Of a DNA stretch of 63,009 nucleotides, positions 17,537 through 60,940 are shown piece by piece. The notes under the pieces are model-generated. The model did not search any database. It worked only from the letters and a program-made list of their open reading frames with translations, and was not told the origin of the DNA. A program made the position numbers and the translations under genes. The stretch comes from a virus. Taxonomy: Duplodnaviria; Caudoviricetes. The first letter of the stretch is position 1. Every line of letters begins with the position of its first letter. The stretch covers positions 1 through 63,009 of IMG/VR virus record IMGVR_UViG_3300036774_000098; one strand, given 5' to 3'.

Positions 17537-17551
17537 GATAGGCGGCATAAT

Positions 17552-17830
17552 ATGCCAAGTGTAAGTAAAGCGCAACATCGTTTTATGGAAATGGTGGCAC
17601 ATGACCCGGCTGCGGCTAAACGAGTCGGCGTTTCTCAGTCTGTAGGAAAAGACTTTGCTGACGCCGACAAGAAAGGACGTTATAATAAATTGCCCGAACG
17701 TAAGGCCGACGCGCCAAAGAAAAAAGGCTGGCTTAAGGGAGGCAAGGGCGAGAAGAAGCTCAAGGCCAAGCTGAGCCAGAAGCCATCAAAGACAGAAGAC
17801 CAGCGGATGAAAAGCCGCTACGGAGAGTGA
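17552..17830 (+). CDS. Small basic phage protein
   Basis: MPSVSKAQHRFM..VAH.P..AK.VGV.QSVGKDF..AD. Confidence 0.7.
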   Translation: MPSVSKAQHRFMEMVAHDPAAAKRVGVSQSVGKDFADADKKGRYNKLPERKADAPKKKGWLKGGKGEKKLKAKLSQKPSKTEDQRMKSRYGE

Positions 17831-29646: not shown

Positions 29647-32600
29647 ATGTACCCGATGATCAGAGACGACTTCGGAACGAAGGACACGCCTGAAGCCGCA
29701 GAGGAACGCCTCAAGCAGGAGCCTGTAGGCGCTGGCGAAGCGCTCGCATCACAGGCCGGGCAGACGACCGGCGACGTCATGCGCTTCGTCAAGCACAAGC
29801 TCGAGCCTGAGCCCTTCTTCCAGGAGGGACACATAAAGAGCCCGGAGGAGCTGAACAAGGAGTACGGCCTCAAGGGTGAGAACCAGTTCAAAAACTACAT
29901 GAACGAGAACACCGCCTCCGAGATGGTCGACGCCCTGCACAAGCGGCAGAAGGCGGAGGAGGTCTACGCCCGGTTCTCGGAGCAGCACAGTTACCTGTCG
30001 CGTCTCGGCATCGGCTTCGTCGGCTCCATGCTCGATCCGATCGAAGCCGCCGCCATGTTCGTCCCAGGCGTCGGCGAGGAGCGGATCGCCTACAAGCTCG
30101 CCACCATGGGCTACGGCAAGCAGGCCGCCGCGTTCATGAGCAAGGTCGGAGCAGGCGCCACAGCGGGCATGGCCGGGGCCACGGCCCTGGAGCCCCTGAA
30201 GGCCATCATGTCCGAGGACGAGCTCAAGGAGTGGCATCTCCGCGACGCCCTGACGGATGTGTTCGCCGCTGCCCCTGCGGGCGCCCTGATGCACGCCGGG
30301 CTGGTCCCCGCGGCTGCTCACGCGGCGTCTTATGTGCATGGCGTCAAGCCTGAGCCCTATGTCCGCGATTACTCGTTTTGGGATAAGGACGAGACCACAT
30401 CGGAAGAGATGGCTCGGCAGGTGCAGCTCGGGGTCAAGGGCGGCGTCGAGACAGCCTTCGACAAAGAGCTGGCGAAGCAGCCTCCGTCGTTCGGCCACAT
30501 CGACGAGCTCGCCAGGATGAGCGCCATCGAGAACCATATCTTCAAGTCGTCGACGTTCGCCCAGCTCCTGACCGGCAAGGAGCCTAACGCTGGCGAGCAC
30601 CTGTTCCCCGATCACAGCGAGCAGGCCCGCCGCCTCGCGCCGGAAGCCCACGCCGAGTGGGACAAGCTGCAGGAGGAGCTGAACAGCATATCGGCCGAGC
30701 ACACCTGGGGAGCCAAGCCTACCCCCGATCAATTGAACGATCCGGCCTGGAAGCTCGAGCAGGAGCTCCGCGAGCACACGAAGGACATCCTCCCGGTCTC
30801 CTGGGACCTGCGCGTCGCCGCTGGTGAAGACCCAACAGTAGCTTCGATAGAAAGCGCTCCTCCAGAGGCTAAGGAAGCCGTTGCGAAATCTGGGGAGCCA
30901 GATTGGCTCCAGGTCCATCAGCAGACGATCAAACCAAGAGGGGCTACCAGTGAGCAGATCGCTGAAGCCCAGTCAGAAGTTGCCCGTCTTCATGCTCATG
31001 ATGAGCGTTACAAGGAGGCGCAGAAAGCTCCGTCCAGCCTTGCTGCCTCTGAGGTGTCGTATCAGAAGACTCTTAGGGAAAGCATAGCCAGACGTAAGGA
31101 AAAAATATCTGGCAATCTAGAAGACCTTTACAAAAAACATAATGAAGAAATGGAACTCCTAAGGAAAGATAAGGGGGAACTCCAGCACGACCGAAAGGTC
31201 GCAATGAATGAGTACGATAACCATCTCGCAGATGGCGAGGAGGGTATTGTGCCAATGGATGACAAATTCTACGCAAAAGAGAAGGAGCTTGGAGAAAAGC
31301 TTCGTACCGTAACAAAAGCGTTTGAGAATAAAAACACATCATACGAAGAGTCCATGTTCAAATCGGCAACGATGGACATGATCCGCACTCTTGAAAATGT
31401 TTTGCGCATGGTCGATAGAGAAATCGATCTGATTGCCGACGCCGAAGTCGCTACGCCTATTGACGTCAGCGAGGCGAGAAAAATTGAGAGCATAGGCAGG
31501 GATGAGGAGCACCAAGGCAAGGTCCTCGCCTATCATGGGACATCGTCTGACGTCTTTTTCCAGAGGTTTAAGATCAAGCCGTTCGCTCACATCGGTCTGC
31601 ATTTTGGGACAGTGGAGCAGGCAAGAGAATTCACCCCGCATAAGGGTCTCCATGAATACACGGACCCAGAGCATAGGTTGGACCTGGAGAGCCACCTTGA
31701 GCAGACTGGGAGCCTACCAAGAGTGTACCCAGTCGTTCTCGATCTAAAAAATGTTATCGAGATGCCTGATCTTGGTTCTTGGGATCCATACGACTCCATG
31801 GAAAATATTAAGGAACATCTTTCTCTAGAACAATATAAAGTCCTGGAAGACAAGATGAATAAAATATACGGCATAAAAGATGGCACGACTGGGTCTAATG
31901 CTACCTACCATTTCATTGATGATTTGGTAAAGCAGAATAAGTTAACTGCTGAAGCTGCCAGAAAGTTAAAGTTCTATTCCAATGATGTCACTTCAGTTCT
32001 TGATGATCTTACAAGAGAGATAGAATACGCAGAGACAAAAGCTGATAAAATAAAATACCAGAAAATGCAAAGAGAGATCAGTGGTGTCGCTGACTTGATC
32101 CATGAGTTTAAAGAGTCGTTTCCCAAACCGTTCAGCTCAGAAGAAAAAATACCTGCTGGACAACAACTCATCCGGGACGCCCTTAGCGAAGCTGGGTATG
32201 ACGGTATACGCTACAGGAACGCCCAAGAGGGGGAAGGGTGGTCTTATATCGTCTGGAAAGAGGGGACAGTGAAGTCTGCCCTGTCTGGACTTCAGATGTT
32301 CAACCGTGGTGAGAAGGGCTCTATAGCTGGCATGGCTGACCCTGCTAAACGCACGGCGTGGATCAGCGCTATGGCTGTCGATCCCAAGCTCGTCGCCCGC
32401 GAGGAGTCTGGCCACGCCATCAAGGCGTCTGGCCTCTTCAAGCCCGGAGAGTGGGGCATCCTGCACGACGCAGCCATCAACCAGGATTGGCTGAGTGACA
32501 TCCCGAAAGACATCCGGGACAAATACGCAGAGGATTACGCGCTCCGAGGGGAAAAAGGCGCACGCGAAGCTATGATCGAAGAGGCGATCATGCATCGCTT

Positions 32601-44510: not shown

Positions 44511-44580
44511 CTTATAACAGGATACGGAACATGTGTCAATCATTAAAATGTTGACACGGTTTGGCCATCTTGATAAAGAT
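44511..44580. promoter_or_regulatory. Back-to-back divergent sigma70 promoters
   Basis: Minus: TTGACA-17-TATAAG. Plus: TTGACA at 44551 with a weaker -10. The two -35 boxes form an inverted repeat. Confidence 0.65.
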
Positions 44581-44631
44581 GTGGGGCAAATACACAACTG
44601 TGTAACTGAAATGCAACATAGGGAACACCAA

Positions 44632-45243
44632 ATGAAGAAGCTTCTCGCCCTCGCAGTTCTGGGCGCTCTGTCTACCTCTGCGGCGGCTGCTGATCTTGGC
44701 GGCTCCATGAAAGATACTTACGAATCTGCGGTGGCTCCGTGCGGCTCTAAGACCTGGACTGGCTTCACTTTGTCGGTCGGCATCCGCGCCGACATGATGG
44801 ACATCGGGCAGACGTCCATAGCCAATGGAGCCGACTTGTCTGCCAGCGTTCGCGACCTCGGCGTCGAAGGCCATCTGGCTGCAGACTACCAGTTCGCTAA
44901 CTCTCCTCTCGTACTTGGCGGATTCGGATCAATCGGCTATAATGGCGCCTCGACGGTGATCGACGAGAGCCTGGGCGTCATCGGCGGCGTGGCTATCGGA
45001 AACGTTCTGCCTTACGCATTGATCAGCGCCGAATTCATGGACACCAAGTGGTCTGATTTTGCTGGTGGAACCAGCTCGTTTGGCATCACGAGCTCTGGCT
45101 ACGGTGTCGGTGGCGGCGTCAAATTCCGCATCACCAACCATCTGGTCGCCGGTGTCGAGTACAAGCGCATCTACTGGGGCAGCGTTGAAGGCATCGACAT
45201 TAAGGAAGATCGCATCGCGGCAAGGGTTGGCTATCAGTTCTGA
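44632..45243 (+). CDS. Outer-membrane beta-barrel protein (Omp25/RopB-like)
   Basis: Signal peptide, AADLGGSMKD, TWTGF, GYG.GGGV, GVEY, C-terminal RVGYQF. Confidence 0.85.
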   Translation: MKKLLALAVLGALSTSAAAADLGGSMKDTYESAVAPCGSKTWTGFTLSVGIRADMMDIGQTSIANGADLSASVRDLGVEGHLAADYQFANSPLVLGGFGSIGYNGASTVIDESLGVIGGVAIGNVLPYALISAEFMDTKWSDFAGGTSSFGITSSGYGVGGGVKFRITNHLVAGVEYKRIYWGSVEGIDIKEDRIAARVGYQF

Positions 45244-45312: not shown

Positions 45313-45330
45313 ATGCCACAAGGAGAAGAC

Positions 45331-45993
45331 ATGTTCGTCTGGGACAGACACACCGTTCAGATCGCCGTCGTGCTGGCTAAGGCCGGCTACTCCTCTCAAG
45401 AGACGGCGACCATCCTCGGGATCAGCCGGAGCGCCGTGCTCGGGCGCTCGAACAGGAAGCGGGAGTTCCAGTTCAAGACGCCGTGCCGCGGCGTGCAGCT
45501 CGCCGAGGAAGCCAGGGCCATTCGACTTGAGGCCGCCAGGGAGCTGATCAAGGACGTCATCCCACCTGCCGAGCCCCACCAGCCTATCGAGTTCGTCTCG
45601 AAGAAGACCAGGGAGCGCATCGCCGCCTTCAAGGCCAGGAAGAATCCGAAGGTCATTATCCGCCGTGATCCGCTGACCGAAAAGCCTCTCACCGAGGAGG
45701 AGAAGCGGCTCCTCTTCACTGTCGAAGGAGGGAACCCAAACTCCGTCAAGTTCCTTGACCTGAAGGAAAAGCATTGCAGATGGATCGTGTCGGAGGTAGA
45801 CGGCATCGACACAGTTTTCTGTGGGAACAAGCACATAGAGGGATCACAATATTGCGAGCACCATCGGGTAAGAAGCATAAGACAGCACCAGCCAAAGCGC
45901 CTCAACTACAAAAAGGTCCTGCTGCTGGATCAAAATATCGTGCACGTGGCTCCTACGATGGAGAAGAATACTTCAGCTCTCAAAAAGAGCTGA
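45331..45993 (+). CDS. gcrA: GcrA-like cell-cycle regulator
   Basis: W.....L...GYS....A..LGISRSAVLG...R; LDL....CRW....FCG.....YC..H. Confidence 0.85.
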   Translation: MFVWDRHTVQIAVVLAKAGYSSQETATILGISRSAVLGRSNRKREFQFKTPCRGVQLAEEARAIRLEAARELIKDVIPPAEPHQPIEFVSKKTRERIAAFKARKNPKVIIRRDPLTEKPLTEEEKRLLFTVEGGNPNSVKFLDLKEKHCRWIVSEVDGIDTVFCGNKHIEGSQYCEHHRVRSIRQHQPKRLNYKKVLLLDQNIVHVAPTMEKNTSALKKS

Positions 45994-47559: not shown

Positions 47560-47732
47560 TGTTCCTTGTCTTTCATTTTCAGAATGAAGTCTTCAGGAGG
47601 AACGCGCACTATGTTGAATTTACCCATCGCAGCATCCACAGTTATGACCTGAACAGTCATCCCATATATCAGCAGGTCCTCGATCATCTTGGCCTTTGGG
47701 TATATCAGGTCCCCTTCGTCTTCCTCCTCCAT
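47556..47732 (-). CDS. 58-aa hypothetical protein
   Basis: MEEEDEGDLIYPK...; TGATG-coupled to the ligase and ATGA-coupled to the nitrilase. Confidence 0.55.
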   Translation of the reverse strand: MEEEDEGDLIYPKAKMIEDLLIYGMTVQVITVDAAMGKFNIVRVPPEDFILKMKDKEQ

Positions 47733-48784
47733 CAGTCTTTCTCCTTCAACAGGTGCTGGTTGTTCAAAGCCTTGAACGAGTGCAGCAGGCCGTCAATGTC
47801 GTAGTGACGCCAGACGCAGCCCTCGGCGTCGACGTTGTGGTTGAGAAGCGACTTCCGCTCGGACATCAGCAGAATGTCGCTGGTGGACGACGGGAACTCA
47901 TCGACGATCGCATAGAGCGGAGCGATGCACAGGCCGAAGTCCGAAGTGATCAGTTGTAACGAAGCTTCGGACACGTAATGCTGCTGCTCGATGTCCCATA
48001 TCCCGAACACGTAGAACTGAGGGGCGATCAGCTTGTAGGGGTTACCCTGGATGCCCGGCCCTACCAGCTCACCCTGGACGGCGATCCCACGCGTCGGGCT
48101 GATCTCGCGGAGTTTGGCTTCCAGGTCGAGCTGACGCGCCATCTTCCAGAACGCGTTGTCCTCGGTCTCCTTCAGGTCGAGGTTGCGCGAGCAGACGCCG
48201 AACTCTCCCTCCTGGAGGTATGCCGTCATCGAGCTGCCGTCCAGCTTCTCGCGGACGAACCACTGCCGAGCCGCCCTGAACTTGTCCCAGCTCCGTGACA
48301 GGTTCTGGATGCGAGGCTCATCCGTCTTCGGGATGAAGGTCGGGAAATTCCCCCGGGCGACACCGGCCAACTGCGGGCTGATCGGCTTCTCCCACTTGGT
48401 GACGCCGAGAAGCTCAGTAAGATCGTTTCGTGACGCCGATGAGAACACCCCTAGAGGGACGATATAAATCGGCAGAAGCAGGCCCTGGCTGAGCTGACCG
48501 CGCAGCTTGATGGTCTTCAGGCGGAAGCCTTCCGTCCCGTCCCAGTTCTTCCTGAACGAACTCTTGCGAAGGAACTCGTACTCGGGGGCCACTGGCAAGA
48601 AGCTGTCCACCTCGAAGTACACGGCGAGGTCTTTTTCTTTGAACTCACCTTTCTTTACCACAACTTGCCAGCCATCTACCATGGCCAGCTCGATCTGGTC
48701 TGCTCCCTCTATCGGCTTGATCTCCGCGATCTCGCGGATCGTCACGAGCTCACGCTCGCTCTTGTGTTCCTGTGCTTCTGTCAT
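47732..48784 (-). CDS. RNA ligase, DRB0094 (Rnl5) family
   Basis: I.PIEGAD.IE.A.VDGW.VVVKKG N-domain, KLRGQLSQG, FP.FIPKTDE.RIQN, motif I EKLDGSS, CSRN, QGEL.G, EG.V, SFK. Confidence 0.92.
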   Translation of the reverse strand: MTEAQEHKSERELVTIREIAEIKPIEGADQIELAMVDGWQVVVKKGEFKEKDLAVYFEVDSFLPVAPEYEFLRKSSFRKNWDGTEGFRLKTIKLRGQLSQGLLLPIYIVPLGVFSSASRNDLTELLGVTKWEKPISPQLAGVARGNFPTFIPKTDEPRIQNLSRSWDKFRAARQWFVREKLDGSSMTAYLQEGEFGVCSRNLDLKETEDNAFWKMARQLDLEAKLREISPTRGIAVQGELVGPGIQGNPYKLIAPQFYVFGIWDIEQQHYVSEASLQLITSDFGLCIAPLYAIVDEFPSSTSDILLMSERKSLLNHNVDAEGCVWRHYDIDGLLHSFKALNNQHLLKEKD

Positions 48785-50583: not shown

Positions 50584-51694
50584 TTTGGATATCCTCCTGT
50601 ATTTTCGCTAGCTTGGCATAGAGGTCCTCGCCGTTGCTAGCCTGGGTTGGTGTATATGCTTTTAGCGTCCCCCTGTCAACTATGGGAGCCGTCCTCCTAC
50701 GCATGGCTTCCATCACACGGCCCTCGAAGAACCTCCAGCCCCTGATCGATCCCGGTCCCATGCGCTCCTCGGCCTGCTTGGACGCCACCTGCAGGACCGG
50801 CAGGATGTCCTGGTAGAGGTCGCACCCGGCGTCGATCCACTTCTTGGGTTCGGTCACCAGCTCCAGGGCCATGTTGCCTCGGGCCAGCGCGCCGTTGCAG
50901 GCGGAGGTCAGTTTGTCGTGCAGCTCGTGCACGGTCAGCTTGTTCGCGTCTGCGCCAATAAATTCGCGCGCGTTAATATCAAGAGATGATTTATCCGGAT
51001 AGGGGCTCTCCAGGGGTGTGGTTGGGGCCAGCTCCCTGCCACCACCATTACCCTCATTGGGTGTAGCGTCTTCCCCAAAAACAACAACACCCCCCTCTGA
51101 ATTTAGCTGAATATCCCCCCGATCCTTAAGGGATGTGGCCCGCTGGGCAGGCCGCTTTTGGGGCAACTGGCCTGTGGGGCAGGCCACCTCGTTTCCAGAA
51201 AAGTGGCCACTAGAACAGGCCACTTTTTTCAAACTGGCCTGTGGGGCAGGCCGCTTTTTTTCATGGGAATCGAGGACATTTTGCAGAATGCTATAGCGAC
51301 TTTTTTTTCCTCGCCCTTCTCTCTCAACCTTTGCGTGCTCCCATTCTCCGAACTTTTCGGCAGCGCTGGCGAAGCCGTCCTTGGACTTGCTGAGCAGCAC
51401 CCGCGCCTCACTGCGAGGCATGGAGATAGGGTCGCCATCGACCCCGCCGAGCTCGATCACGGCCACGGCGAACAGCTTCGCGTCGGCCGGCATATCGCTG
51501 GTCAGCACTTGAATTCTGGCGATGTCTCGGGGAGTAGGATTTGGGTTGGCTTTGAGAAGGCGGGAACGGGCGCTCTCTCTCTTGGTCTCGATGTAGGCCA
51601 GCTCCATTCCGCTGAGGTCCAGTGGCGTCTGCTGGCGGCCGTTGAATGGGGTATTGACGCGCGGTTGCGCATGCTCTATGGTTTTATCCACCAT
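50567..51694 (-). CDS. Putative replication initiator
   Basis: N-terminal wHTH-like region, internal iterons, C-terminal W..AGCD...DILP...W.FF; GAGGA RBS. Confidence 0.6.
   Translation of the reverse strand: MVDKTIEHAQPRVNTPFNGRQQTPLDLSGMELAYIETKRESARSRLLKANPNPTPRDIARIQVLTSDMPADAKLFAVAVIELGGVDGDPISMPRSEARVLLSKSKDGFASAAEKFGEWEHAKVEREGRGKKSRYSILQNVLDSHEKKRPAPQASLKKVACSSGHFSGNEVACPTGQLPQKRPAQRATSLKDRGDIQLNSEGGVVVFGEDATPNEGNGGGRELAPTTPLESPYPDKSSLDINAREFIGADANKLTVHELHDKLTSACNGALARGNMALELVTEPKKWIDAGCDLYQDILPVLQVASKQAEERMGPGSIRGWRFFEGRVMEAMRRRTAPIVDRGTLKAYTPTQASNGEDLYAKLAKIQEDIQNGKRT
51136..51253. repeat. Four 19-bp iteron-like quasi-palindromes (candidate origin)
   Basis: TGGCC-N7-CAGGCC(A/G) at 51136, 51168, 51204 and 51235, mostly followed by T-tracts. 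Confidence 0.75.
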
Positions 51695-51817
51695 GAGGCT
51701 TTCCTCGATTAGCTTTGAGACGCATACCCAATGCGCCATGGTCGTGCCGCTGGGCTTTGACGAGTCGCAGCAGGCCTCCGCAGGATACGGAGCCAAAGCA
51801 ACTTTGGCAACCTCTTA

Positions 51818-51853
51818 AACGGCCAGCTCTCCCCCAATCCAGAGCTGGCCGTT
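51818..51853. repeat. Perfect 13-bp inverted repeat upstream of the initiator
   Basis: AACGGCCAGCTCT-cccccaatcc-AGAGCTGGCCGTT. Confidence 0.8.
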
Positions 51854-51980
51854 GCCGTTTTGGGAGGTGGCTGGACCCGCAGCCTCAGCGACAGGCGACC
51901 ACCTTACACCTGCCGAGCCCATAACTCCAGCGTGTCATATTCAAAATATTGCATACACAAAGTGGTATACATTTTCCATG

Positions 51981-52009
51981 TTGACAGTCGTCAGCTCCTG
52001 GGCTATTGT
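51981..52009 (+). promoter_or_regulatory. Sigma70 promoter of RNA unit 1
   Basis: TTGACA-17-TATTGT. Confidence 0.75.
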
Positions 52010-52015
52010 TTGGTC

Positions 52016-52680
52016 TGACGCAACGTGGTTCGTTTGGTTTCGGGTGACTTTGCTTTCTTCAGCAGATCAGTGAGCTCCTACCGTTTCGGAACTCCGATCT
52101 CCCATCAGACACGCCTCTCGATAGATGCTGATCTGGTCTGCTGGGGAAAACAAAGTGTTTCATTGGAGGGGATCTCCGTGTGGGCGTTTCGACTGATAGG
52201 TTTGGCCCCCAAGTTCTGATGCCGAAAGGATAGTGTCCCCTCCGCCAGCGGTGGCAGGAAAGCGCTAATCAGGACAAAACCTTAGTGGCAGGCCAAGAGT
52301 GCGTTTCTCATTCTTGTCATTGGGGAGGCCTCCTTTCACGTGGTTTTGGATGCGCCACGTAACTGGTCAAGATATGCGAAAGCAGACGTCGGGCCTCTCG
52401 ACTTCTGGGGATACAGAGGGATTGCAAACGGCGTTAATCTGATCAGCGTTCCCGCCGCACTGGAGGCGCAAAACTCCCAGTGGCTAATTTTCGGCCTCTA
52501 TGCAAATACCTCAGGACACCTAATGATGGCGTATCGCCATCGCGTCCACACCGAGCAGCATAGGGGGTTCAAGTCCGCGGATAAGCTCGAAGGTCTCTGC
52601 GAGTCCTTTCGAGCAAATCCGCGGACTTCCGGGGTTCCTCCCTCCATTTTGGCGACAAGGTGGAGGGACACCCCCCAGAT
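52016..52680 (+). ncRNA. Structured non-coding RNA region (unit 1)
   Basis: No convincing ORF; stems such as CAGCAGATCAG/CTGGTCTGCTG (52060-52143) and AAGTCCGCGGAT/ATCCGCGGACTT (52571-52628). Confidence 0.6.
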
Positions 52681-52683
52681 TTT

Positions 52684-52760
52684 TGCGGAGTGGAGCAGTA
52701 GTCAGCTCGCCAGCCTCATAAGCTGGAGGTCGGTGGTGCAAATCCACCCTCTCGCAACCA
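52684..52760 (+). tRNA. tRNA with CAT anticodon (Met-like, fMet-type body)
   Basis: CCAGC-CTCATAA-GCTGG; T arm GGTGG-TGCAAAT-CCACC; ACCA end; bulged acceptor stem; lacks the three G-C anticodon-stem pairs. Confidence 0.75.
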
Positions 52761-52817
52761 GAATGCAGCACGGCGACGAAAAAGGGAACCCTATGTCCCT
52801 GGGTCCATCAGCATTAT

Positions 52818-52904
52818 GGACCGGAAGTGTAAAGGGGCACACTGTCGGCGGAGGCTAGACACTCACCGACGGAGGAGGCGGTTCGATACCGTCCCGGACC
52901 AACA
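52818..52904 (+). ncRNA. tRNA-like RNA with extended anticodon arm
   Basis: GGACCGG/CCGGACC acceptor (one mismatch), D arm, GGCGG-TTCGATA-CCGTC; anticodon arm carries 10-14 extra nt. Confidence 0.6.
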
Positions 52905-52924
52905 CATAAAGCAGGAGGGAACAC

Positions 52925-53578
52925 ATGAGCAGCACACTTGACATGCTTCACGCCGATCTTCGAGAGATCGAAGCTCATCTCGCCGTGTGGCCTGACGACA
53001 AATACGCCATCCACAGGCATGGCCTGATCCTGGAAGACATTGAGGCGGCGACCCCGCCGATGACGTCCGACCAGCACCAGAGCACTCTGCGCGGCGCTAA
53101 GCCCGTCCCAGGATCGTATGACTGGATGGGCAAGGCCGCTCGCGATGCCCTGCCAGCAGGATACGAGAATCCATGCTTGAGCTGCAAATCAGTCGTCTCA
53201 TGTTCCGGCTGCGTCCACCGCGTCCAGCGCCAGGATATCAAGCGCTACGGAGACGCCCCAAGCAATGACCTGGAGCGCTATGCCCAGCGTCAGCTGGAGC
53301 TCTACGGCAACAAGCCGAAGCGGGTCATCCTCGACGACGTCACCGAACAGTGGGATTTCGGACGCACCAATGCCCTGCGCTTCACCTTCGGCGCAGACTA
53401 TGAGATGGACCAGCAGTGGCTCGCCAGGGAACGCGCCAAGGTCGCAGGACGACGGGAAGAACAACGGACGGTTGCCTCACCCACCCCCACTGCCGAGCCC
53501 GACCGGATGATGTTTCCCGTCATGGCTTATGACTTGACAAGCCTACACAACTTGAACTATGGTACATCTCGTTACTGA
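52925..53578 (+). CDS. Hypothetical protein between the RNA units
   Basis: AGGAGG RBS; CxxC....CxxC motif. Confidence 0.6.
   Translation: MSSTLDMLHADLREIEAHLAVWPDDKYAIHRHGLILEDIEAATPPMTSDQHQSTLRGAKPVPGSYDWMGKAARDALPAGYENPCLSCKSVVSCSGCVHRVQRQDIKRYGDAPSNDLERYAQRQLELYGNKPKRVILDDVTEQWDFGRTNALRFTFGADYEMDQQWLARERAKVAGRREEQRTVASPTPTAEPDRMMFPVMAYDLTSLHNLNYGTSRY
53534..53563 (+). promoter_or_regulatory. Sigma70 promoter of RNA unit 2
   Basis: TTGACA-18-TATGGT. Confidence 0.6.
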
Positions 53579-53970
53579 CGTAGCAAACTCCAGGTGTGGC
53601 TGCCGATTTCACAGTTACACTCCTGGATAAAGAGACAGCTCCAGCCAGCGGCGTCTTGTGTTGCAGGCAAGAACGCCATTTAAACTAGCTCGGGCTGTCT
53701 CTAAACTTCAGCATTTGTGGTAGACGATGTTGAGTGTGCGACCTATCTTCCGTTCCCTCGGATCAGCGGCGCTTCCCAATCCCAACATCGTCTTCCAGAA
53801 CTGCTGACGGCATTCGTGAAGATGATCTCTTCCCTTTGACCCCCACACGGTCTCTGCTACATCGGAGAAACGGGGAGGGATCATCCTCAGGACTGCTGTG
53901 CCTCGAAAGAGGTTGGCGAGAAATGTAAACCCATCGTACGCCGGCTGATACGAGATGGGCTCTTCCAGAG
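53575..53970 (+). ncRNA. Structured non-coding RNA region (unit 2, 5' part)
   Basis: Consecutive long stems: AGAGACAGC/GCTGTCTCT, AGACGATGTTG/CAACATCGTCT, GATGATCTCTTCCC/GGGAGGGATCATC. Confidence 0.6.
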
Positions 53971-53974
53971 TATC

Positions 53975-54050
53975 GCTAGTCGTAGCTCAGTTGGTAGAGC
54001 GGGGGACAAATAATCTCTAGCGCGCTGGTTCGAGTCCAGCCGACATGGCA
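53975..54050 (+). tRNA. Degenerate tRNA or tRNA-like RNA (nominal anticodon AAT)
   Basis: Canonical TAGCTCAGTTGGTAGAGC D arm and GCTGG-TTCGAGT-CCAGC; loop CAAATAA lacks U33; bulged acceptor; no CCA. Confidence 0.55.
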
Positions 54051-54063
54051 GTCCGCATAATTA

Positions 54064-54151
54064 GGGTGAGACCCAGACTGGTGTCTGGAACGGACTGTAA
54101 ATCCGTCGGCATTGCGACCATGGACGGGTTCGATCCCCTCCTCGCCCACCA
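54064..54151 (+). tRNA. tRNA-Tyr(GTA)
   Basis: GGGTGAG/CTCGCCC-ACCA; ACGGA-CTGTAAA-TCCGT; long variable arm; bulged T stem. Confidence 0.8.
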
Positions 54152-54156
54152 TATTT

Positions 54157-54345
54157 GACGACGCCGCCTAGAGGTGAGGGCACTGTTGAACGGAAGCAGG
54201 TGGGGAAACCCAGACGCGGTGAAAGCGGCCTCCCCAACTTTGACCGGGTAAGCGCGGTTCATAAGGAGGCCCGCCATCGAATTGTCAGACAAAGGCTTGG
54301 CGGTGGTCTGCGTTGTTGCCGGTTCGAGTCCGGCCGTCGTTACCA
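54157..54345 (+). ncRNA. 189-nt tRNA-like RNA with a large structured domain replacing the anticodon arm
   Basis: GACGACG/CGTCGTT-ACCA acceptor, D-like arm, GCCGG-TTCGAGT-CCGGC; multibranch insert. Confidence 0.7.
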
Positions 54346-54347
54346 AA

Positions 54348-54580
54348 GCTCCTGTAAGGGAGTGTAGCGTTATGGCAATGGCGCTATTCCTTGAAGGCGC
54401 CAGGAGTTTCCCACTCCTGGCGTTTAGCTCCTCGCCGGAGGGGGTAAGTCGAGAAGTCCTCTGCAGGGGAATCTCGCAGGAAACCGGGGACTGCCGACGG
54501 CCTTAATGTTGGGGAGAGCTGGGGCCTTAGGCCAGCCGGCCTTCCTTGGCGGGCACTTGTGTGGCCGGTCAAGGGGCCGT
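54348..54580 (+). ncRNA. Run of contiguous hairpins between tRNA-like RNAs
   Basis: GCTCCT-GTAA-GGGAGT, TAGCGTTAT-GGCA-ATGGCGCTA, CGCCAGGAG/CTCCTGGCG and others. Confidence 0.5.
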
Positions 54581-54583
54581 TAC

Positions 54584-54657
54584 CGGGATGGGGCCAAATG
54601 CGAAATGGCAACGGGTCGCGCCCGTCGTTGCAGGTTCGAATCCTGCCATCCCGGCCA
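54584..54657 (+). ncRNA. tRNA-like RNA with 5-nt anticodon loop
   Basis: CGGGATG/CATCCCG-GCCA; GCCA/TGGC D stem; ACGGG-TCGCG-CCCGT; GCAGG-TTCGAAT-CCTGC. Confidence 0.7.
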
Positions 54658-54676
54658 TTCATCAAAGGAGGACAGC

Positions 54677-54862
54677 ATGACAGAGCCAAGACACCCGGCC
54701 TCGGACGGGGAATACCACGACATCCCCGACGTCGCCGATCAGACGGCCCAGGAAGCCGAGGACAGGGGCGTAGAGCCCCAGCCCAGCGCTCCCCTGGACT
54801 ATGCCGACGCCGACGTCCCGGACGTCGCAGGCGAGGCCCAGAGCGGGTACAGGTGGCCATGA
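54677..54862 (+). CDS. 61-aa acidic micro-protein
   Basis: AAGGAGG RBS; MTEPRHPASDGEYHDIPDVAD...VPDVAG. Confidence 0.65.
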   Translation: MTEPRHPASDGEYHDIPDVADQTAQEAEDRGVEPQPSAPLDYADADVPDVAGEAQSGYRWP

Positions 54863-54984
54863 GCGACGAGCCCCATCACACGCCCCCGCCCGGCGAAGAG
54901 CCCCAAGAGGCCGAGCCGGTAACCGTAGCCCCCGAGGTCCACGTGGAGATCCACAACCTCGACGACGAGAGGACCGAGATATGA
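54859..54984 (+). CDS. 41-aa acidic micro-protein
   Basis: MSDEPHHTPPPGEEPQEAEP...; ATGA coupling. Confidence 0.6.
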   Translation: MSDEPHHTPPPGEEPQEAEPVTVAPEVHVEIHNLDDERTEI

Positions 54985-55142
54985 GCGACGAAGACACGCA
55001 GGACCACAACCCGACTAACACCCACCCGGCGTCGAGCGGCGGCCCCTACGAGATCCCGGACCTCGCCGGCGACACGGCAGACATTGCCGACGAGTTTGAG
55101 TTCAACTACGCCCAGGCGGCGTTTGATATGGAGAAGCACTGA
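54981..55142 (+). CDS. 53-aa acidic micro-protein
   Basis: MSDEDTQDHNPTNTHPASSGGPYEIPDLAGD...; ATGA and TGATG coupling. Confidence 0.6.
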   Translation: MSDEDTQDHNPTNTHPASSGGPYEIPDLAGDTADIADEFEFNYAQAAFDMEKH

Positions 55143-55435
55143 TGGTGTCAGGACTCACATTCGAAGAGGCTCTTCAGTCCGTAAAGCAAGGCTCCAGAAT
55201 CTATCGAGCTGGCTGGAACGGCAAGAACCAGTTCCTGTCACTTGCCCCTGGCAACAGCCACCTGCCAGCAGGATCAATCTGGAGCCGTCATGGCCGCGAG
55301 TTTGCCGAGCTGCTCGGCGGAAGCATTGCTGTCGCCCCGTCCTTGACCCTCAAGAACTCCCAGGACCAGCTCGTCATGGGATGGGTTCCGAGCACTGGCG
55401 ATCTGTTCGCCGAGGATTGGGTGGCTGAGGAATGA
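55142..55435 (+). CDS. tad2: DUF2829 / Thoeris anti-defence Tad2-family protein
   Basis: F.EAL..VK.G..I.R.GWNGK..F ... GW.PS..D.FAEDW. Confidence 0.85.
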   Translation: MVSGLTFEEALQSVKQGSRIYRAGWNGKNQFLSLAPGNSHLPAGSIWSRHGREFAELLGGSIAVAPSLTLKNSQDQLVMGWVPSTGDLFAEDWVAEE

Positions 55436-55587
55436 GTTGCCCCGTCTGCGGCCAAGACAGCTGCTCATGCCAAGCAGATCTCTTCGACGCATTTATTGGC
55501 GGTGGACCGGCTGACGTCCCCCCGGAGCACCAGCCCCACCACATACCCCCTGCCGAGCCCGATCCTGATAACGACAACGACCCTTGA
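55432..55587 (+). CDS. 51-aa acidic Cys-rich micro-protein
   Basis: MSCPVCGQDSCSCQADLFDAFIGGG...DPDNDNDP; ATGA coupling to tad2. Confidence 0.6.
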   Translation: MSCPVCGQDSCSCQADLFDAFIGGGPADVPPEHQPHHIPPAEPDPDNDNDP

Positions 55588-55635
55588 CAGGAGTCAGCAT
55601 CTATACTATATCCCTCTCTGCATGATTAGTTCTAC

Positions 55636-55680
55636 AAAAAGAGCCCGCCCCTGAGCACGATGCAGGGACGGGCTTTTCTC
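55636..55680. terminator. Bidirectional terminator between convergent operons
   Basis: AAAAAGAGCCCG...CGGGCTTTTCT. Confidence 0.65.
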
Positions 55681-55683
55681 ATT

Positions 55684-56070
55684 TCAGCTGTGCCTCGCCG
55701 TCATCTTCCACCCAGGCTCTTCCCAGGGGATGCCGTTGACTGTGCAGAACTCCTGCAGGGCCTGACGCCATTTCGGCAGGTCATAGGTCATCATATCGGC
55801 TGGAGACAGGTCGGCATGTTCCCACCTGCCAGCCTCCTTCTTCGTCCCGATGATGTAGACGTAGCTGACGGTGTTCCCATTGTAGAAGTCTCCGCTCTTG
55901 CCGAGGTTGACTTTGCCGTCCTTCTTCCCGCACACGGGATAGGGAACAGAGTCATCATCCTCGTCGACCATGGCGGACAGCCGCTCATGGAGCTTCTCGT
56001 CCATCTCGTAGTCTTCGTCCCAGAGGAACGGGAACCCGAAATACAGCACCGCATTGATATCGACGCCCAT
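55684..56070 (-). CDS. Hypothetical protein
   Basis: MGVD..A.LYFG; TGATG coupling. Confidence 0.6.
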   Translation of the reverse strand: MGVDINAVLYFGFPFLWDEDYEMDEKLHERLSAMVDEDDDSVPYPVCGKKDGKVNLGKSGDFYNGNTVSYVYIIGTKKEAGRWEHADLSPADMMTYDLPKWRQALQEFCTVNGIPWEEPGWKMTARHS

Positions 56071-56903
56071 CAGTCATCTCCACTTCCATAGACGGTGTCA
56101 TCATGACGGAGCCGGTTCACCATGGCCCGCTCTTCCTCATGCTCGGCCCTGGCGTCTTCAAGCTGCACGTTGAGGATCTTGGCCAGCTTGACCATCCCGT
56201 CGTTCGTCACATGGACGGCCGACACCCGCTCCCGCTCGCCAGTGCTCCTATCGACGTAGGCGGCAGGACCATGGCACAGCCAGCCCTTGTCGAGGATCGG
56301 CTGGTAGGCGACGCTGCGGCGTCCCTTGGAGTGAGCCCGCCAGTGAAGCCACCCGATGTTGTGGAGCCAATTGATGAACGGCAGAGGATTCATCTTCAGG
56401 TCCTTGGCAGCGATCTGCAGGGACACGCTGCCAGGGGTGACGCGCAGCCGTTCGATGGCGTCCACGTCGGGCTGCATGACCTCGACCCTGCTCTCCAGGG
56501 CCAGGACCTTCTTCTCGGCCTCGATCGCCATGGTGAGGATTTCCAGGCGCGTCATGCTTGACGGGTTCTGACGACGCGTCAGCTCCTTCTCCATCGCCTC
56601 GAAGGCGTCGAGGAAGGCTGACTTCCATTTCATCGCCGCCGCTCCGGTGAACCCCATCGCCAGCAGACTGAACCCACGCCGGTTCATCTCGTAGCACCGG
56701 GCTTTTGCCTTGTTCTTTGCAACGTAGGATAGAACCCCAAAATTGGGGACCTCTCTAGTTGCATCTTTGAGAAGGTTGTCTATGTCGCGGAGGACATGAT
56801 CGTGCCGTTTGCCGAATTTGTCGGCGACCTCCAGGGAGGAAACGACCGGGACGCCTTCGCCGTTCTTGACGACGACGACGAGTTCGTGTAGTTTTTCGTT
56901 CAT
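56070..56903 (-). CDS. rha: Rha-family regulator fused to a KilAC/ANT antirepressor domain
   Basis: SSLEVA..FGKRHDHVLRDI, GFSLLAMGFTG..A..WK; AAKDL...GWL...VT..G. Confidence 0.85.
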   Translation of the reverse strand: MNEKLHELVVVVKNGEGVPVVSSLEVADKFGKRHDHVLRDIDNLLKDATREVPNFGVLSYVAKNKAKARCYEMNRRGFSLLAMGFTGAAAMKWKSAFLDAFEAMEKELTRRQNPSSMTRLEILTMAIEAEKKVLALESRVEVMQPDVDAIERLRVTPGSVSLQIAAKDLKMNPLPFINWLHNIGWLHWRAHSKGRRSVAYQPILDKGWLCHGPAAYVDRSTGERERVSAVHVTNDGMVKLAKILNVQLEDARAEHEEERAMVNRLRHDDTVYGSGDD

Positions 56904-57581: not shown

Positions 57582-58391
57582 TCAGACCTCGCCCCGAGCG
57601 ACGGCCTCAGCCTGCCGAGCCCGGCATCCATGGGCCTTAAACCCAACGATAGTCCTCCTGATCGACGAGGCGCATAGGCGGCAAGTGTCGCACGTCAGGT
57701 TCCTGGCAGTTGTTGCAGGACAAACAACAACTCGATGTCCTTCAGGCGTATGCCCTCCGCTATCAGGATAGTCCATCGGTAGGACGACAACCACGGGAGC
57801 AGTGGTCAGCTTCTTCAGCTCGTCGGCATGCTCAACCGTATTGGCTGAGACGTTCACCGTGAAGCCTCGATAGTTGGCCTCATCGATGATGGCTGCGTTC
57901 CACTCAAACCCCACGGTGTAATGGGTGTAGGTGAATCCCTTCTTCCCTTTGTTGGCCTCGGCCAGCATCAGCACCGCGTCGCGGTCGAGGATCACGCCGT
58001 CTCCAGGCAGGTCGCCCGCCTGATTGTGCCGCCAGAAGGTTCCTTTCGGGAGGGCCTTCACATCGGCGCAGAAGGCATCCCAGGGCTTGCCTTTCTCTTT
58101 CCGGGTCACTGCGTCCCAGAAGATCCTCATCGGCCCTCCACGGGCGTAGCAGGACGCCTCACGGAATGGACAGTCTTCGACGCAGGTGTCGGCCGTCGTG
58201 GTGCTCACCGGGATAGGCCCGGTCTTTGTGTTGGTTGACCGCAGCGTCAACGCCGCCTGATAGTCGCCCATCTTTTCCGGGGCGGCCCACGTCTCGACAG
58301 CTCTTCTGGCTGCGCTCCGGGCGCCGCTCTTGCGCAGCATGTCCTGTTCCTCTGGAGTTAAGCCCTCCAGGGTTGAATAGAAATCACGCAT
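57582..58391 (-). CDS. Cys-rich Gp88-like (radical-SAM-related) phage protein
   Basis: SxNxKTG, TCxxxCPF...CYA, WRHNQAGD, FTYTH, NVSA, CPA...TCxxCxLC, GF.AHG. Confidence 0.6.
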   Translation of the reverse strand: MRDFYSTLEGLTPEEQDMLRKSGARSAARRAVETWAAPEKMGDYQAALTLRSTNTKTGPIPVSTTTADTCVEDCPFREASCYARGGPMRIFWDAVTRKEKGKPWDAFCADVKALPKGTFWRHNQAGDLPGDGVILDRDAVLMLAEANKGKKGFTYTHYTVGFEWNAAIIDEANYRGFTVNVSANTVEHADELKKLTTAPVVVVLPMDYPDSGGHTPEGHRVVVCPATTARNLTCDTCRLCASSIRRTIVGFKAHGCRARQAEAVARGEV

Positions 58392-58472
58392 AGAAATCTC
58401 CGTTTGGTTTCGGGTCTGGACATTGGAGTCCATCCCACGCCTCCCCGAGAGAAGGCGTGAAATTGACTTCAA

Positions 58473-59134: not shown

Positions 59135-60052
59135 TCAAGCCGCCTTCTTCATCCAATCATCAGCCAGATTGCTGATGTCCCGTTCGAACTTCAGCCCGCT
59201 GTCGAGGGCCTTGATCCCGGTCACTGACCGAGGGCGGGGCAGGAGCTTACGCTCTTCATCTGACGCTTTGTTGTAGCGATCGATGGCCGCCCAGGGCTTC
59301 TGGCCGCCCAGCCTCAGGTTCTCCTCCAGGAGCTGGTAGACGCCCCAAAGGTTGCTGTCTGTGTCGCCGACGCGGAGCGTCTCGAAGAGCTGCATCGGGT
59401 AGATCGGAGCTTTGTCTTTCTCCCAACGGAGCAGCAGGGCCTCCTCCGCCATGGCGATGGCCGCTCCTTTCCTCATAGGCGTGTCGATCATCGCCTGACG
59501 CCACTCGCTGATGACGCCAATCGAGCCCATCATCTTCAGGGCCGCCTCGATCACGTCCATGACGTTCAAACGCACATGGCTCAGGCGGATAGCCTCAGCG
59601 ACGCGGCCGGCGATCAGCCCATTGCCGCACAGAAGCTCCAGGAGCCCGGCGAACATCTGGATGGAGCAGCGGCCGGCATGGTCGCCGACGTAGCCCACCT
59701 GCCCGTAGAAGCCCCGCCCGGCCGGATCATAGATGTCCGGGTGCCGGTACATGACGAGGTGCTTCATGAAGGCTTCCTTGACCAGCGCCTCCTCCTTAGC
59801 CTCTGGCGTGTGATCGACAGGACGAGCCCGCTGCTTGACCACTTTCACCGGGTAGAACCCAGCGTCCACCATCTTCTCGTGAACCAGAGACGTCGGCACG
59901 TGGACGTAGCTGGCTCCACGCTTCTCGTGCTTCTCAGTCTTGAAGATCGACGGCGCAAAGGCCATCAGCTCTTCGTCACTGATCTGCGTCGCCGACGTCA
60001 GAGTGTTCATCGATCCATGCGCGAACCGGGTGAATGGCCTCATCATTGTCAT
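59135..60052 (-). CDS. DUF932-family protein
   Basis: APSIF....H...Y..VPT, GF.PV, KH...R, AG....C.NGL, H, R..D...LW......EN...GG. Confidence 0.8.
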   Translation of the reverse strand: MTMMRPFTRFAHGSMNTLTSATQISDEELMAFAPSIFKTEKHEKRGASYVHVPTSLVHEKMVDAGFYPVKVVKQRARPVDHTPEAKEEALVKEAFMKHLVMYRHPDIYDPAGRGFYGQVGYVGDHAGRCSIQMFAGLLELLCGNGLIAGRVAEAIRLSHVRLNVMDVIEAALKMMGSIGVISEWRQAMIDTPMRKGAAIAMAEEALLLRWEKDKAPIYPMQLFETLRVGDTDSNLWGVYQLLEENLRLGGQKPWAAIDRYNKASDEERKLLPRPRSVTGIKALDSGLKFERDISNLADDWMKKAA

Positions 60053-60315: not shown

Positions 60316-60771
60316 CTATACTTCGATAAACTCTCCTCCTTCCTCGACGAACAGCTCCAGAACTGCTATCATTCTCGTCTGATACCCCTTGCCGCCCGTT
60401 TTATAGTGATGGAGCAGCTTGGTCGGTATGCGGAGATTGATGGCCGTCCGGTTCGCTTCCTCCTTCGACGGCAGCACAACGAAGCGCTTGGCGTCAGGAG
60501 GCAGCACGGGGCGCACACGCGGCGCTTTCCGTTTCTTGGGTGATGGCGAGGGCTTAGGCTTCTTCGCCCGTGTGCGGGCTTCCTTGGGCTCTACAGCCAC
60601 CATCTCGGATTCAGTGATGATCGGGCCAGGAGCTTCGCGCATCGACTGGCCACCGTAAGCAGGCGCGCCAGACATCACGTCGCCCGGCAGAATATGATTG
60701 GGAGCAGCGACGCTCCAGACATTCGACTCATTGCCCGGCAGGCGGACATTGCCAACTCTTTTTATGGCCAT
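60316..60771 (-). CDS. Protein with C-terminal BrnA-antitoxin-like RHH domain
   Basis: INLRIP..LL..YK..GKGYQTRM..VL; AGGAGG RBS. Confidence 0.7.
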   Translation of the reverse strand: MAIKRVGNVRLPGNESNVWSVAAPNHILPGDVMSGAPAYGGQSMREAPGPIITESEMVAVEPKEARTRAKKPKPSPSPKKRKAPRVRPVLPPDAKRFVVLPSKEEANRTAINLRIPTKLLHHYKTGGKGYQTRMIAVLELFVEEGGEFIEV

Positions 60772-60940
60772 ATCGGCCTCCTGTTCATCGTTTGCGATGG
60801 ATGGAGTTTGCCATTTGCGGCCATAAAAGTATATACCGGAGGAGTTTCCCCTTGAGGGATAGCCCGTCATCGAGTAAGCTGAGGTCGATATGCACCTTCC
60901 AAAGTTCCTGGCCTTATTCACCCATCACGCTGGAGCAGAC

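Follow-up and report, generated by a model that had tools for sequence, protein, structure and literature searches.

A modular array of tRNA-like and structured RNAs upstream of the Tad2 operon of an IMG/VR phage, and a family of phage tRNA-like elements with a UCGCG arm

The sequence analysed here (the window) is the whole of IMG/VR virus record IMGVR_UViG_3300036774_000098, 63,009 bases of a phage genome estimated to be 89% complete. The locus of interest lies at 51,981–54,657, where two units of about 0.9–1.1 kilobases (kb) of non-coding DNA, each headed by a promoter-like sequence, together hold six tRNA-shaped elements (e1 to e6) and three large structured modules (RNA1, RNA2 and RNA3). 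We regard the locus as an array of non-coding RNA genes, conserved and built of modules, in an accessory, probably early, region of the genome, and the evidence tips towards a processed polycistron of non-decoding tRNA-like and ornate RNAs, which serves at the same time as the leader for an open reading frame of 217 amino acids (ORF217) and for the operon that carries a Tad2-like gene. What is new in it is a family of tRNA-like elements with a UCGCG arm, to which e6 belongs, and several structured RNAs not yet catalogued. The usual view of phage tRNA genes is that they help with codon usage or replace tRNAs cut by defence systems; here a phage lineage conserves apparently non-decoding tRNA shapes, under promoters that are themselves conserved, beside three uncatalogued structured RNAs and just upstream of Tad2, a known anti-defence gene.

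Three metagenomic loci related to this one (L007, L008 and L009) were found through an alignment of ORF217 homologues (3 of 144 pattern matches) and are used for comparison throughout. The two units consist of the following features (nt, nucleotides; bp, base pairs; MFE, minimum free energy).

51981–52009, plus strand: P1, putative promoter, TTGACA and TATTGT spaced by 17 nt, 10 of 12 consensus positions.
52016–52452, plus strand: RNA1a, 5' module of unit 1, with a long hairpin and the motif GAUAUGCGAAAGC at 52371–52383.
52453–52683, plus strand: RNA1b, 3' module of unit 1, with a 12-bp stem (GUCCGCGGAU...) around a hairpin.
52684–52760, plus strand: e1, tRNA(CAU) of the phage tRNA-Met type (ARAGORN; Rfam, 52.9 bits).
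52818–52901, plus strand: e2, tRNA-like (MFE cloverleaf; called by neither ARAGORN nor Rfam).
52925–53578, plus strand: ORF217, which separates units 1 and 2; no known protein family.
53534–53563, plus strand: P2, putative promoter, TTGACA and TATGGT spaced by 18 nt, 10 of 12 consensus positions, inside the 3' end of ORF217.
53570–53975, plus strand: RNA2, of unit 2, with hairpins H1 and H3 and the motif UCAGGACUGCUG.
53976–54048, plus strand: e3, tRNA-like (ARAGORN; Rfam, 42.0 bits, acceptor flagged).
54064–54151, plus strand: e4, like selenocysteine tRNA (tRNA-Sec) or allo-tRNA, anticodon GUA (tRNA-Sec model and MFE; no ARAGORN call).
54157–54345, plus strand: e5, tRNA-like RNA of 189 nt (folding and comparison with L007).
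54346–54583, plus strand: RNA3, multi-branched with a long-range closing stem, kept in L007 and L009.
54584–54657, plus strand: e6, tRNA-like, with the arm GGG-UCGCG-CCC at 54613–54623 (ARAGORN; Rfam, 45.7 bits).

P1 and P2 are the best sigma-70-type matches within 51600–56200, a stretch with four promoter-like sites against 1.6 ± 1.1 in shuffled sequences. The −35 and −10 hexamers of P1 and a block upstream of them are kept in L008 and L009, and the TTGACA of P2 is invariant in four of four genomes (the window and the three relatives). The upstream block, about 35 nt at 51945–51980 directly 5' of the P1 −35 hexamer (...GTATACATTTT...), includes the palindrome GTATAC and is a possible operator or UP element. 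From P1 the DNA is non-coding as far as the ribosome-binding site of ORF217, and from P2 as far as that of a small ORF (ATG at 54677). Sixty-one stop-to-stop frames of at least 25 amino acids from both stretches were compared with the relatives by tblastn, and no frame-specific conservation was seen: the matches covered the same DNA blocks in every frame and on either strand, and none was longer than 72 amino acids, whereas ORF217 aligns over 213–218 residues. A preliminary description of the locus had proposed TTGACA promoters at 51981 and 53534, each followed by a largely ORF-free stretch of 0.9–1.1 kb; both proposals held, the promoters being conserved in the relatives and no frame in the stretches being conserved as protein.

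The nucleotide blocks of the RNA units are 73–97% identical between the window and its relatives, while the ORF217 protein encoded among them is only 33–58% identical (58% in L007, 39% in L009 and 33% in L008). The order of the parts is kept: P1, RNA1, e2, ORF217 with P2, RNA2, tRNA-like elements, RNA3, e6, ribosome-binding site, small ORF and Tad2. Their occurrence varies. The 5' half of RNA1 (RNA1a) is shared with L009 only and the 3' half (RNA1b) with L008 only; e2 is found in L007 and L008 and not in L009, e5 in L007 only, and e1 and e4 in the window only among the four genomes. RNA2 is present in L007 and L009 (L008 ends about 200 nt beyond P2), and RNA3, e6 and the downstream small ORF are present in both loci that extend that far (L007 and L009). 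As judged from the aligned sequences, modules are swapped, gained and lost between the relatives, and the parts do not move as a single RNA system, e6 types also standing alone in unrelated phages.

Searches of IMG/VR with ORF217, with the upstream ORF of 409 amino acids (ORF409) and with the ORF217 alignment (A1) gave no relative, nor did A1 against genome contigs; ORF409 had no tblastn match among GenBank phages, and a search with the RNA ligase of this genome gave one distant, larger phage (L003) without RNA homology. A blastn search of GenBank phages with 51900–54700 touched 38 records, in tRNA pieces only and each over no more than 3% of the query. The terminase is at most 46% identical to that of any cultured phage, and there is therefore no close cultured relative.

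Among the large modules, RNA1a is common to the window and L009 in blastn blocks of 75–86% identity, and RNA1b is 83% identical to L008 3694–3876, where the inner hairpin is replaced by a different, equally paired sequence inside the conserved 12-bp stem. In RNA2, which is 73% identical to L007, the loop of hairpin H1 (CCGAUUUCA) is invariant; hairpin H3 (about 53709–53805) is near-identical in L007, and 11 pairs of its stem, read by eye, are kept in L009 with a different sequence. RNA3 is 81% identical to L009 over 54434–54583. Hairpins capped by GNRA loops are enriched, with 2.0 per kb against 0.57 per kb across the window. The GAAA-tetraloop hairpin motif GAUAUGCGAAAGC, counting one variant, has a single copy in the window and two each in L008 (3392 and 3544) and L009 (4239 and 4382), always within the RNA1 region, with a chance expectation of 0.01 copies in the window. 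Exact stretches of 24–40 nt from RNA1 and from the core of e5 had no match in IMG/VR. No non-tRNA Rfam family was detected, either at the gathering threshold in the whole window or at E ≤ 10 in 51700–54900 and in L007–L009, and full-length matches to GOLLD, ROOL, YrlA or transfer-messenger RNA (tmRNA), named beforehand as the outcome that would make the locus a known one, were not found.

Folding energies were expressed as z-scores for tiles of 411 nt, with 22 random tiles of the window as background (mean −0.91, standard deviation 1.26, minimum −2.94). Three of the five tiles across the units were outliers (52273–52683, z = −8.75; 53565–53975, z = −6.57; 54247–54657, z = −4.27), and RNA2 gave z = −7.24 with 100 shuffles. 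At homologous positions in the relatives z was −4 or lower in five of nine tiles, and eight control tiles from the same loci ranged from +0.34 to −1.83. RNAalifold counted compensatory pairs in RNA1a (24 of 99), RNA1b (9 of 58), RNA2 (6 of 70) and RNA3 (13 of 51); between e5 and its counterpart in L007, none of the 45 predicted pairs is broken and seven are changed on both sides, in the acceptor, anticodon-like and T stems. Because RNAalifold favours covariation, a stricter test was run, in which the MFE structure of the window alone was used and pairs changed on both sides in the relatives were compared with a substitution-matched null. An excess of such pairs was found for RNA1b (p = 0.002), e5 (p = 0.0055) and RNA2 (p = 0.027).

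Canonical tRNAs have a 7-bp acceptor stem and a 7-nt anticodon loop with a pyrimidine at position 32, U33 and a purine at position 37. All six elements fold on their own into cloverleaf-like MFE structures and all six are irregular, none combining a regular 7-bp acceptor with a loop of this kind. ARAGORN calls three of the six and Rfam, at the gathering threshold, two; the Rfam scores listed above for e1, e3 and e6 were obtained with the tRNA model at E ≤ 10 (gathering threshold 29 bits), under which e2 and e5 gave no match, and these two were recognised by reading of the sequence and by MFE folding. The CCA end is encoded in e1, e4, e5 and e6, not in e2. The six tRNA-shaped elements of the preliminary description are thus present by ARAGORN, Rfam and MFE folding taken together; its account of the individual arms stands in part, as specified below for each element.

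Element e1 is 80–87% identical to annotated tRNA-Met genes in many phages and has no counterpart in the three relatives. A single base is bulged in the 3' strand of its acceptor, at a position also bulged in an annotated Vibrio phage tRNA-Met, and its T loop, UGCAAAU, has G at position 55. Element e2 has an A3.A70 mismatch in the acceptor, a D arm and a T arm with the loop TTCGATA, and its anticodon arm is extended to 31 nt, as had been proposed, by a 7-bp stem (52842–52848/52866–52872) and an inner helix. It shares 87% identity with L007 and, over the T arm and acceptor, 97% with L008; two pairs of the extended stem, read by eye, are compensatory with respect to L007. Element e3 has canonical D and T arms, acceptor mismatches at 2:71 and 3:70, and the loop CAAAUAA (A33, 'AAU'), which bears out the reported lack of U33; its orthologue in L009 keeps the acceptor mismatches and scores 43.5 bits over model positions 5–66 only. 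At the position of e3, L007 carries a different tRNA-like element of 103 nt (1104–1206, 35.3 bits), in which the anticodon region is replaced by about 44 nt including a second T-arm-like hairpin, and the same element begins at the contig end of L008 (4985–5009).

Element e4 scores 45.5 bits on the tRNA-Sec model (RF01852), below the gathering threshold of 47, and has the anticodon GUA where Sec requires UCA. Its MFE structure has a 6-bp D stem with a 4-nt loop, a variable-arm hairpin, 6–7 acceptor pairs and a bulged T stem; no counterpart was found in L007 or L009. The elements with CAT and GTA, e1 and e4, had been taken for normal tRNAs, a view that the bulged acceptor and G55 of the one and the 6-bp D stem and imperfect T stem of the other do not allow. 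Element e5 has an acceptor (54157–54163/54335–54341), a D arm, a T arm, A73 and CCA. A large domain had been thought to replace its anticodon arm; instead a 5-bp stem with the 7-nt loop GAACGGA (54188–54194; G32, A33, no U33) is kept, and an insert of 118 nt (54200–54317) occupies the position of the variable arm. The core of the insert (57 nt, 54230–54286) is identical to L007 at 56 of 57 positions, more conserved than the stems of e5, and the loop GAACGGA is invariant. The 3' end and T arm of e5 give a partial match to the beta_tmRNA model (63 positions, 22.6 bits; gathering threshold 84). Element e6 has C1:G72, G3:C70, G73 and CCA. Its anticodon arm, once described as shortened to 5 nt, is of normal length (17 nt), and pairing of G32 with C38 is needed to make the loop 5 nt. 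The window, L007 and L009 share an unchanged arm, GGUCGCGCC, amid stems that vary. From these features e2, e3, e5 and e6, at least, probably do not decode.

The arm of e6 defines a wider family, here taken as a cloverleaf with a GG-UCGCG-CC anticodon arm followed by a standard T arm, which is newly named here and is widely distributed among phages. A loose pattern (arm and T loop) matched at least 118 IMG/VR loci; among the 118 matches listed, 99 pass a simple cloverleaf rule, which the random-looking ones all fail. A stricter pattern matched 101 of the 118 listed loci against 10 loci in prokaryotes, for which one genome from each of 185,579 species was scanned. The prokaryotic matches, eight of ten of which are tRNA-shaped when read by eye, come from Lachnospiraceae, Hungatella, metagenome-assembled genomes of Clostridiales and Spirochaetaceae, and Microbacterium, the last closely resembling e6 of the window. 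Among 25 representatives, covariation is seen at 19 of 23 stem pairs; 82% of the cells are paired against 37–52% in slid controls, and none of 500 shuffles attains the observed values. Two body plans bear the arm: a Firmicutes type (8-bp acceptor, 5-bp D stem, 5-bp T stem) and a GC-rich type to which e6 of the window belongs (a 7/5 plan). The MAFFT alignment of the two is inconsistent, and because two body types carry it, the shared arm could be inherited or convergent, its constancy on different bodies being the point of note. In the Firmicutes type (L015, L010, L017 and about 90 other IMG/VR loci) the first acceptor pair is usually G:C and the variable loop has 4 nt.

In other phages the element usually lies 130–250 nt upstream of one ordinary tRNA. 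Phages of Ruminococcus gnavus provide an example (MT980836.1, 36041–36113), in which it stands between a RinA activator gene and packaging genes, just before a tRNA-Asn. In cultured R. gnavus phages and in Microbacterium phage vB_MoxS-R1 the element is annotated as tRNA-Ala. The alanine identity pair is G3:U70, which with A73 makes up the alanine identity set; most members, including e6 of the window, the R. gnavus type and Microbacterium phage R1, have G3:C70. The family thereby flags a systematic mis-annotation as 'tRNA-Ala', and its roughly 100 phage sequences, some from cultured phages, offer a testable handle on non-decoding phage tRNA look-alikes. No protein of the window recurs beside e6-type elements (two single, incidental matches were seen), which argues for a partner conserved across host phyla. 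Comparison of the two units by blastn with 1.03 Mb of e6-family loci gave seven matches, all at the level of tRNA, and comparison of RNA3 with the leaders that precede the e6-type elements of Microbacterium phage R1 and L135 gave no convincing homology. A literature search that included the arm sequence found no paper describing the family, supplementary files being outside its scope.

Downstream of the units the coding features are as follows.

54677–54862, 54859–54984 and 54981–55142, plus strand: three small ORFs with overlapping stop and start codons.
55142–55435, plus strand: Tad2-like gene (PF11195, E = 1.6e-19), the last gene of the overlapping operon.

Unit 2 does run into the Tad2 operon, as had been noted, and L007 and L009 retain both the Tad2 region and the first of the small ORFs. 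The 3' end of e2 lies about 10 nt, and that of e6 7 nt, 5' of a Shine-Dalgarno sequence, with the spacing kept in L007 and L009. ORF217 itself had no Pfam or PHROG match and no Atlas lead, and its AlphaFold2 model is a low-confidence fold (pLDDT, the predicted local distance difference test, of 53). Among 447 candidates eight homologues were found at E ≤ 0.001 and aligned as A1; in these the last 16 residues (YDLTSLHNLNYGTSRY) are invariant or nearly so and the middle of the protein cannot be aligned. The DNA at 53531–53578 encodes this C-terminus and also holds both hexamers of P2 (−35 and −10) and the beginning of RNA2, and since the invariant C-terminus coincides with P2, the sequence suggests that protein and promoter constraints both act on it. 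The octamer GUUCCCUC at 53752, in hairpin H3 of RNA2, is the exact complement of GAGGGAAC at 52915, in the ribosome-binding site of ORF217; the complement is kept in the window, L007 and L009, and both sides are absent from L008. A pairing of RNA2 with this ribosome-binding site was considered and set aside, its best duplex energy being equalled or bettered by 64 of 200 control windows.

The neighbourhood of the locus includes Tad2, small acidic ORFs, an anti-repressor and an RNA ligase, the last correctly recognised beforehand and situated 3.2 kb upstream.

47732–48784, minus strand: RNA ligase gene (PF21189 and PF09414; phrog_968, E = 8e-86).

The accessory region also holds genes for a GcrA-like cell-cycle regulator (45313–45993) and an outer-membrane beta-barrel protein (44533–45243), because of which the host is probably a Gram-negative bacterium, likely an alphaproteobacterium. 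Minus-strand genes at 57582–58472, 59135–60052 and 60316–60921 encode DUF7227 (E = 1.5e-82), DUF932 and a C-terminal BrnA-antitoxin-like domain. The G+C content of the window is about 59%; two kilobases within the structural gene region, 17001–18000 and 31001–32000, are lower (48% and 45%). Near-identical fragments of the locus were met in two DNA sequencing runs only, labelled as aquatic and freshwater metagenomes (shares of 0.10 and 0.05), and the low-depth contigs of these runs span parts of RNA1, e2, e5 and RNA3, each differing at a few to 20 positions; none covers ORF217, a gap from which we conclude nothing. The run labels give a weak hint of a freshwater habitat.

Under the reading we favour, two host-type promoters would each yield one long precursor, in which RNA1a and RNA1b, RNA2 and RNA3 are interleaved with e1 to e6 and followed by ORF217 or by the small ORFs and Tad2. 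Host tRNA-processing enzymes would cut at the tRNA-shaped modules, presumably RNase P at the 5' side and 3' trimming at the acceptor end. Such cutting would free stable structured RNAs and tRNA-like RNAs and would fix the 5' end of each mRNA downstream, a few bases ahead of its Shine-Dalgarno sequence. The earlier idea of tRNA scaffolds as processing signals fits the tRNA-like elements that end each unit just before a Shine-Dalgarno sequence, and is retained to that extent, processing itself being a prediction. Once freed, e2, e3, e5 and e6 would display their conserved loops, and e5 its insert, on a tRNA scaffold; the invariance of the loops and the conservation of the e5 insert suggest that they act through recognition and not through decoding. 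For e6, which occurs in phages of Firmicutes and Actinobacteria and in this phage without a shared neighbour protein, we infer as partner a conserved host reader of anticodon arms, be it a tRNA, an enzyme that acts on tRNAs or an immune nuclease aimed at them. A role in counter-defence or host conflict is plausible, and the neighbourhood with the RNA ligase, the anti-repressor, the small acidic ORFs and Tad2, the cassette-like exchange of modules and the differing e3 loops of the window and L009 would fit it.

Taken further, the locus might be a multi-RNA island for counter-defence or for hijacking translation, in which the e6 loop binds an anticodon-reading partner or decoys an immune nuclease, an extension that we hold to be possible and rather unlikely. 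One candidate partner would be the major arginine tRNA: the UCGCG loop could, as we presume, form five contiguous pairs with U33, I34-C35-G36 and A37 of tRNA-Arg(ICG); it also holds the self-complementary CGCG, and the e5 loop has ACG at the anticodon position. Speculatively, e5 would then be a second effector, derived from arginine tRNA, and RNA1 to RNA3 would be swappable in the manner of anti-defence protein cassettes.

Several observations weigh against the processed, non-decoding array. No RNA sequencing run matched the stretch, so that promoter activity, processing and stability are predicted and unproven. The dense base pairing seen at the outset holds for three of the five tiles and fails for the other two, which are ordinary (52010–52420, z = −1.5; 53976–54386, z = −0.61), as are four of the nine tiles of the relatives; a sparse scan with 300-nt tiles also gave two unremarkable tiles inside the units. 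In the window-only test neither RNA1a (p = 0.26) nor RNA3 (p = 0.91 and p = 0.11) reached significance, and counts of pairs still paired were significant in none of six comparisons (lowest p 0.05); covariation rests on three relatives with rough alignments, and because there are only three, its power is low. The invariance of the e6 arm among the IMG/VR and genome matches is forced by the search pattern, and independent evidence for it comes from the window, L007 and L009 only. Decoding by some elements is still possible: e1 is similar to phage genes annotated as tRNA-Met, the e3 orthologue of L009 has a canonical loop (UUUGUAA, UGU) and may decode, L009 carries an extra, near-canonical tRNA-Pro (55.8 bits), and L064 and L120, the only members of the e6 family with G3:U70, have A73 as well (read by eye).

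The last of these points are also what a working tRNA operon would predict, in which the irregular elements decode, either as ordinary or as missense, allo-tRNA-like tRNAs, and the structured stretches are spacers or leaders for processing; we judge this unlikely, with enough in its favour to be taken seriously. Position 32 of tRNAs is almost always a pyrimidine, and e5 and e6 have G there; e2 is without a 7-nt anticodon loop, and e3 and e5 of the window are without U33. The e3 acceptor is mismatched at 2:71 and 3:70 in both the window and L009, and e6 of the window combines G3:C70 with an 'anticodon' that would match a codon for alanine. Spacers would hardly be expected to be as conserved as the tRNA-like parts, nor the e5 core to be more conserved than the e5 stems, as is the case here. 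The operon would account for the scores of 42–53 bits that e1, e3 and e6 reach on the Rfam tRNA model, for the CCA encoded in e1, e4, e5 and e6, for the UGU loop and the tRNA-Pro of L009 and for the two e6-family members with G3:U70. It would also account for the D arm of e4, of the tRNA-Sec and allo-tRNA kind, since passages of Mukai et al. 2017 (PMC5389517) report allo-tRNAs that are functional in E. coli.

The large RNAs (RNA1 of about 670 nt and RNA2 of about 400 nt) might alternatively be self-assembling analogues of GOLLD and ROOL, with the tRNA-like elements as cargo or handles. Their sizes are comparable, their folding z-scores very negative, their GNRA-capped hairpins enriched and the GAAA-hairpin motif recurrent; moreover RNA1 lies directly 5' of a tRNA(CAU), and GOLLD and ROOL are placed near tRNAs in passages of PMC12286853. 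However, neither GOLLD (RF01998) nor ROOL (RF03087) gave a match, in the whole window at the gathering threshold or in 51700–54900 and L007–L009 even at E ≤ 10, and the modular RNA1, with its halves in L009 and L008, is unlike a single conserved fold, so that we consider such analogues doubtful.

It is very improbable that the stretches act only in cis, as 5' leaders that govern translation or decay of ORF217 and the Tad2 operon in the manner of attenuators, riboswitches or stability elements, and that they yield no free-standing RNA products. The adjoining of tRNA-like ends and ribosome-binding sites at conserved spacing would suit such leaders, as would the finding of no strong plus-strand terminator between either promoter and its downstream ORFs, but 0.9–1.1 kb of exchangeable modules is atypical for cis-regulators, e6 types elsewhere lie upstream of a tRNA and not directly before an ORF, no riboswitch or leader family was matched, and RNA2 pairs with the ribosome-binding site no better than many controls do. 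Decay of a tRNA cluster into pseudogenes and neutral intergenic DNA would explain six non-canonical elements, a varying module content and the lack of counterparts of e1 and e4 in three relatives, but it is scarcely credible for structured RNAs outside Rfam (except the tRNA clan) whose blocks are conserved beside a far more divergent protein, with compensatory stem changes, invariant loops, a near-invariant e5 core, both promoters kept and strongly negative z-scores at homologous positions in the relatives, and for an e6 family of at least about 100 phage sequences.

The processed array can be set beside several known systems. Shapes of tRNAs serve elsewhere as processing handles, in tRNA punctuation, in organelle t-elements and in mascRNA at the 3' end of MALAT1, where RNase P and RNase Z set the RNA ends, and the tRNA cluster of phage T4 also yields stable non-tRNA RNAs ('species 1/2'). 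Unlike mere handles, the phage elements have invariant loops, and e5 an insert, which suggest roles beyond the marking of cut sites. A tRNA-like module is also part of YrlA and tmRNA, and in L007 a weak alignment with YrlA runs from the T arm of e5 into the beginning of RNA3. YrlA/Y RNA (RF02553) was nevertheless rejected as an identification, having no match in the window and 21 against 69 bits in L007 (E = 1.8); the phage record holds no TROVE or RtcB gene, and a Ro protein encoded by the host is possible. ARAGORN found no tmRNA, the sole Rfam match of this kind being the partial one of e5 below the cut-off, and e5 has D and anticodon-like arms, which tmRNA is without.

Phage tRNAs with altered loops that escape tRNA-targeting defences are described by van den Berg et al. 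2023 (PMC10264068) and Azam et al. 2024 (PMC11555353). The present elements resemble them in their unusual anticodon loops and in a genome with counter-defence genes (here Tad2 and RNA ligase). Those tRNAs still decode, whereas the loops found here break the rules for U33 and the pyrimidine at 32, or the arm is extended or accompanied by a large insert, and for these reasons e2, e3, e5 and e6 are unlikely to replace a cleaved host tRNA.

Closer in kind are the polycistrons of irregular tRNAs and allo-tRNAs that Mukai et al. 2017 (PMC5389517) describe, in the passages concerned, from soil metatranscriptomes and from tRNA clusters of alpha-proteobacterial phages; E. coli processes, charges and uses allo-tRNAs of the 8/4 and 9/3 types, and some irregular tRNAs are thought there to be regulatory non-coding RNAs. 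Both sets break the rules of the cloverleaf, with long acceptor stems, tRNA-Sec-like D arms, extra loops and bulges. They differ in that the irregular tRNAs of this phage are interleaved with structured RNAs of 240–670 nt, one has a 118-nt insert, and the units are at the same time mRNA leaders. The GG-UCGCG-CC family is not mentioned in these passages of the paper, whose supplementary figures may show related clusters.

For the large modules the nearest comparison is with GOLLD and ROOL, which PMC12286853 presents, in the passages that treat them, as large ornate RNAs of phages and prophages, 'often near tRNA islands', with GOLLD env-38 downstream of a Met-tRNA and tRNAs sometimes in the GOLLD linker. 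As far as these passages and those of PMC5389517 go, the kind is already described, as irregular-tRNA polycistrons and as ornate phage RNAs beside tRNA islands, and 'undescribed', the word first applied to the locus, is too strong for it. Like GOLLD and ROOL, the modules are phage-encoded, hundreds of nucleotides long, highly structured and adjacent to tRNAs; unlike them, RNA1 is a mosaic of modules differently distributed among relatives, and RNA1, RNA2 and RNA3 extend the short list of ornate phage RNA candidates to which GOLLD and ROOL belong.

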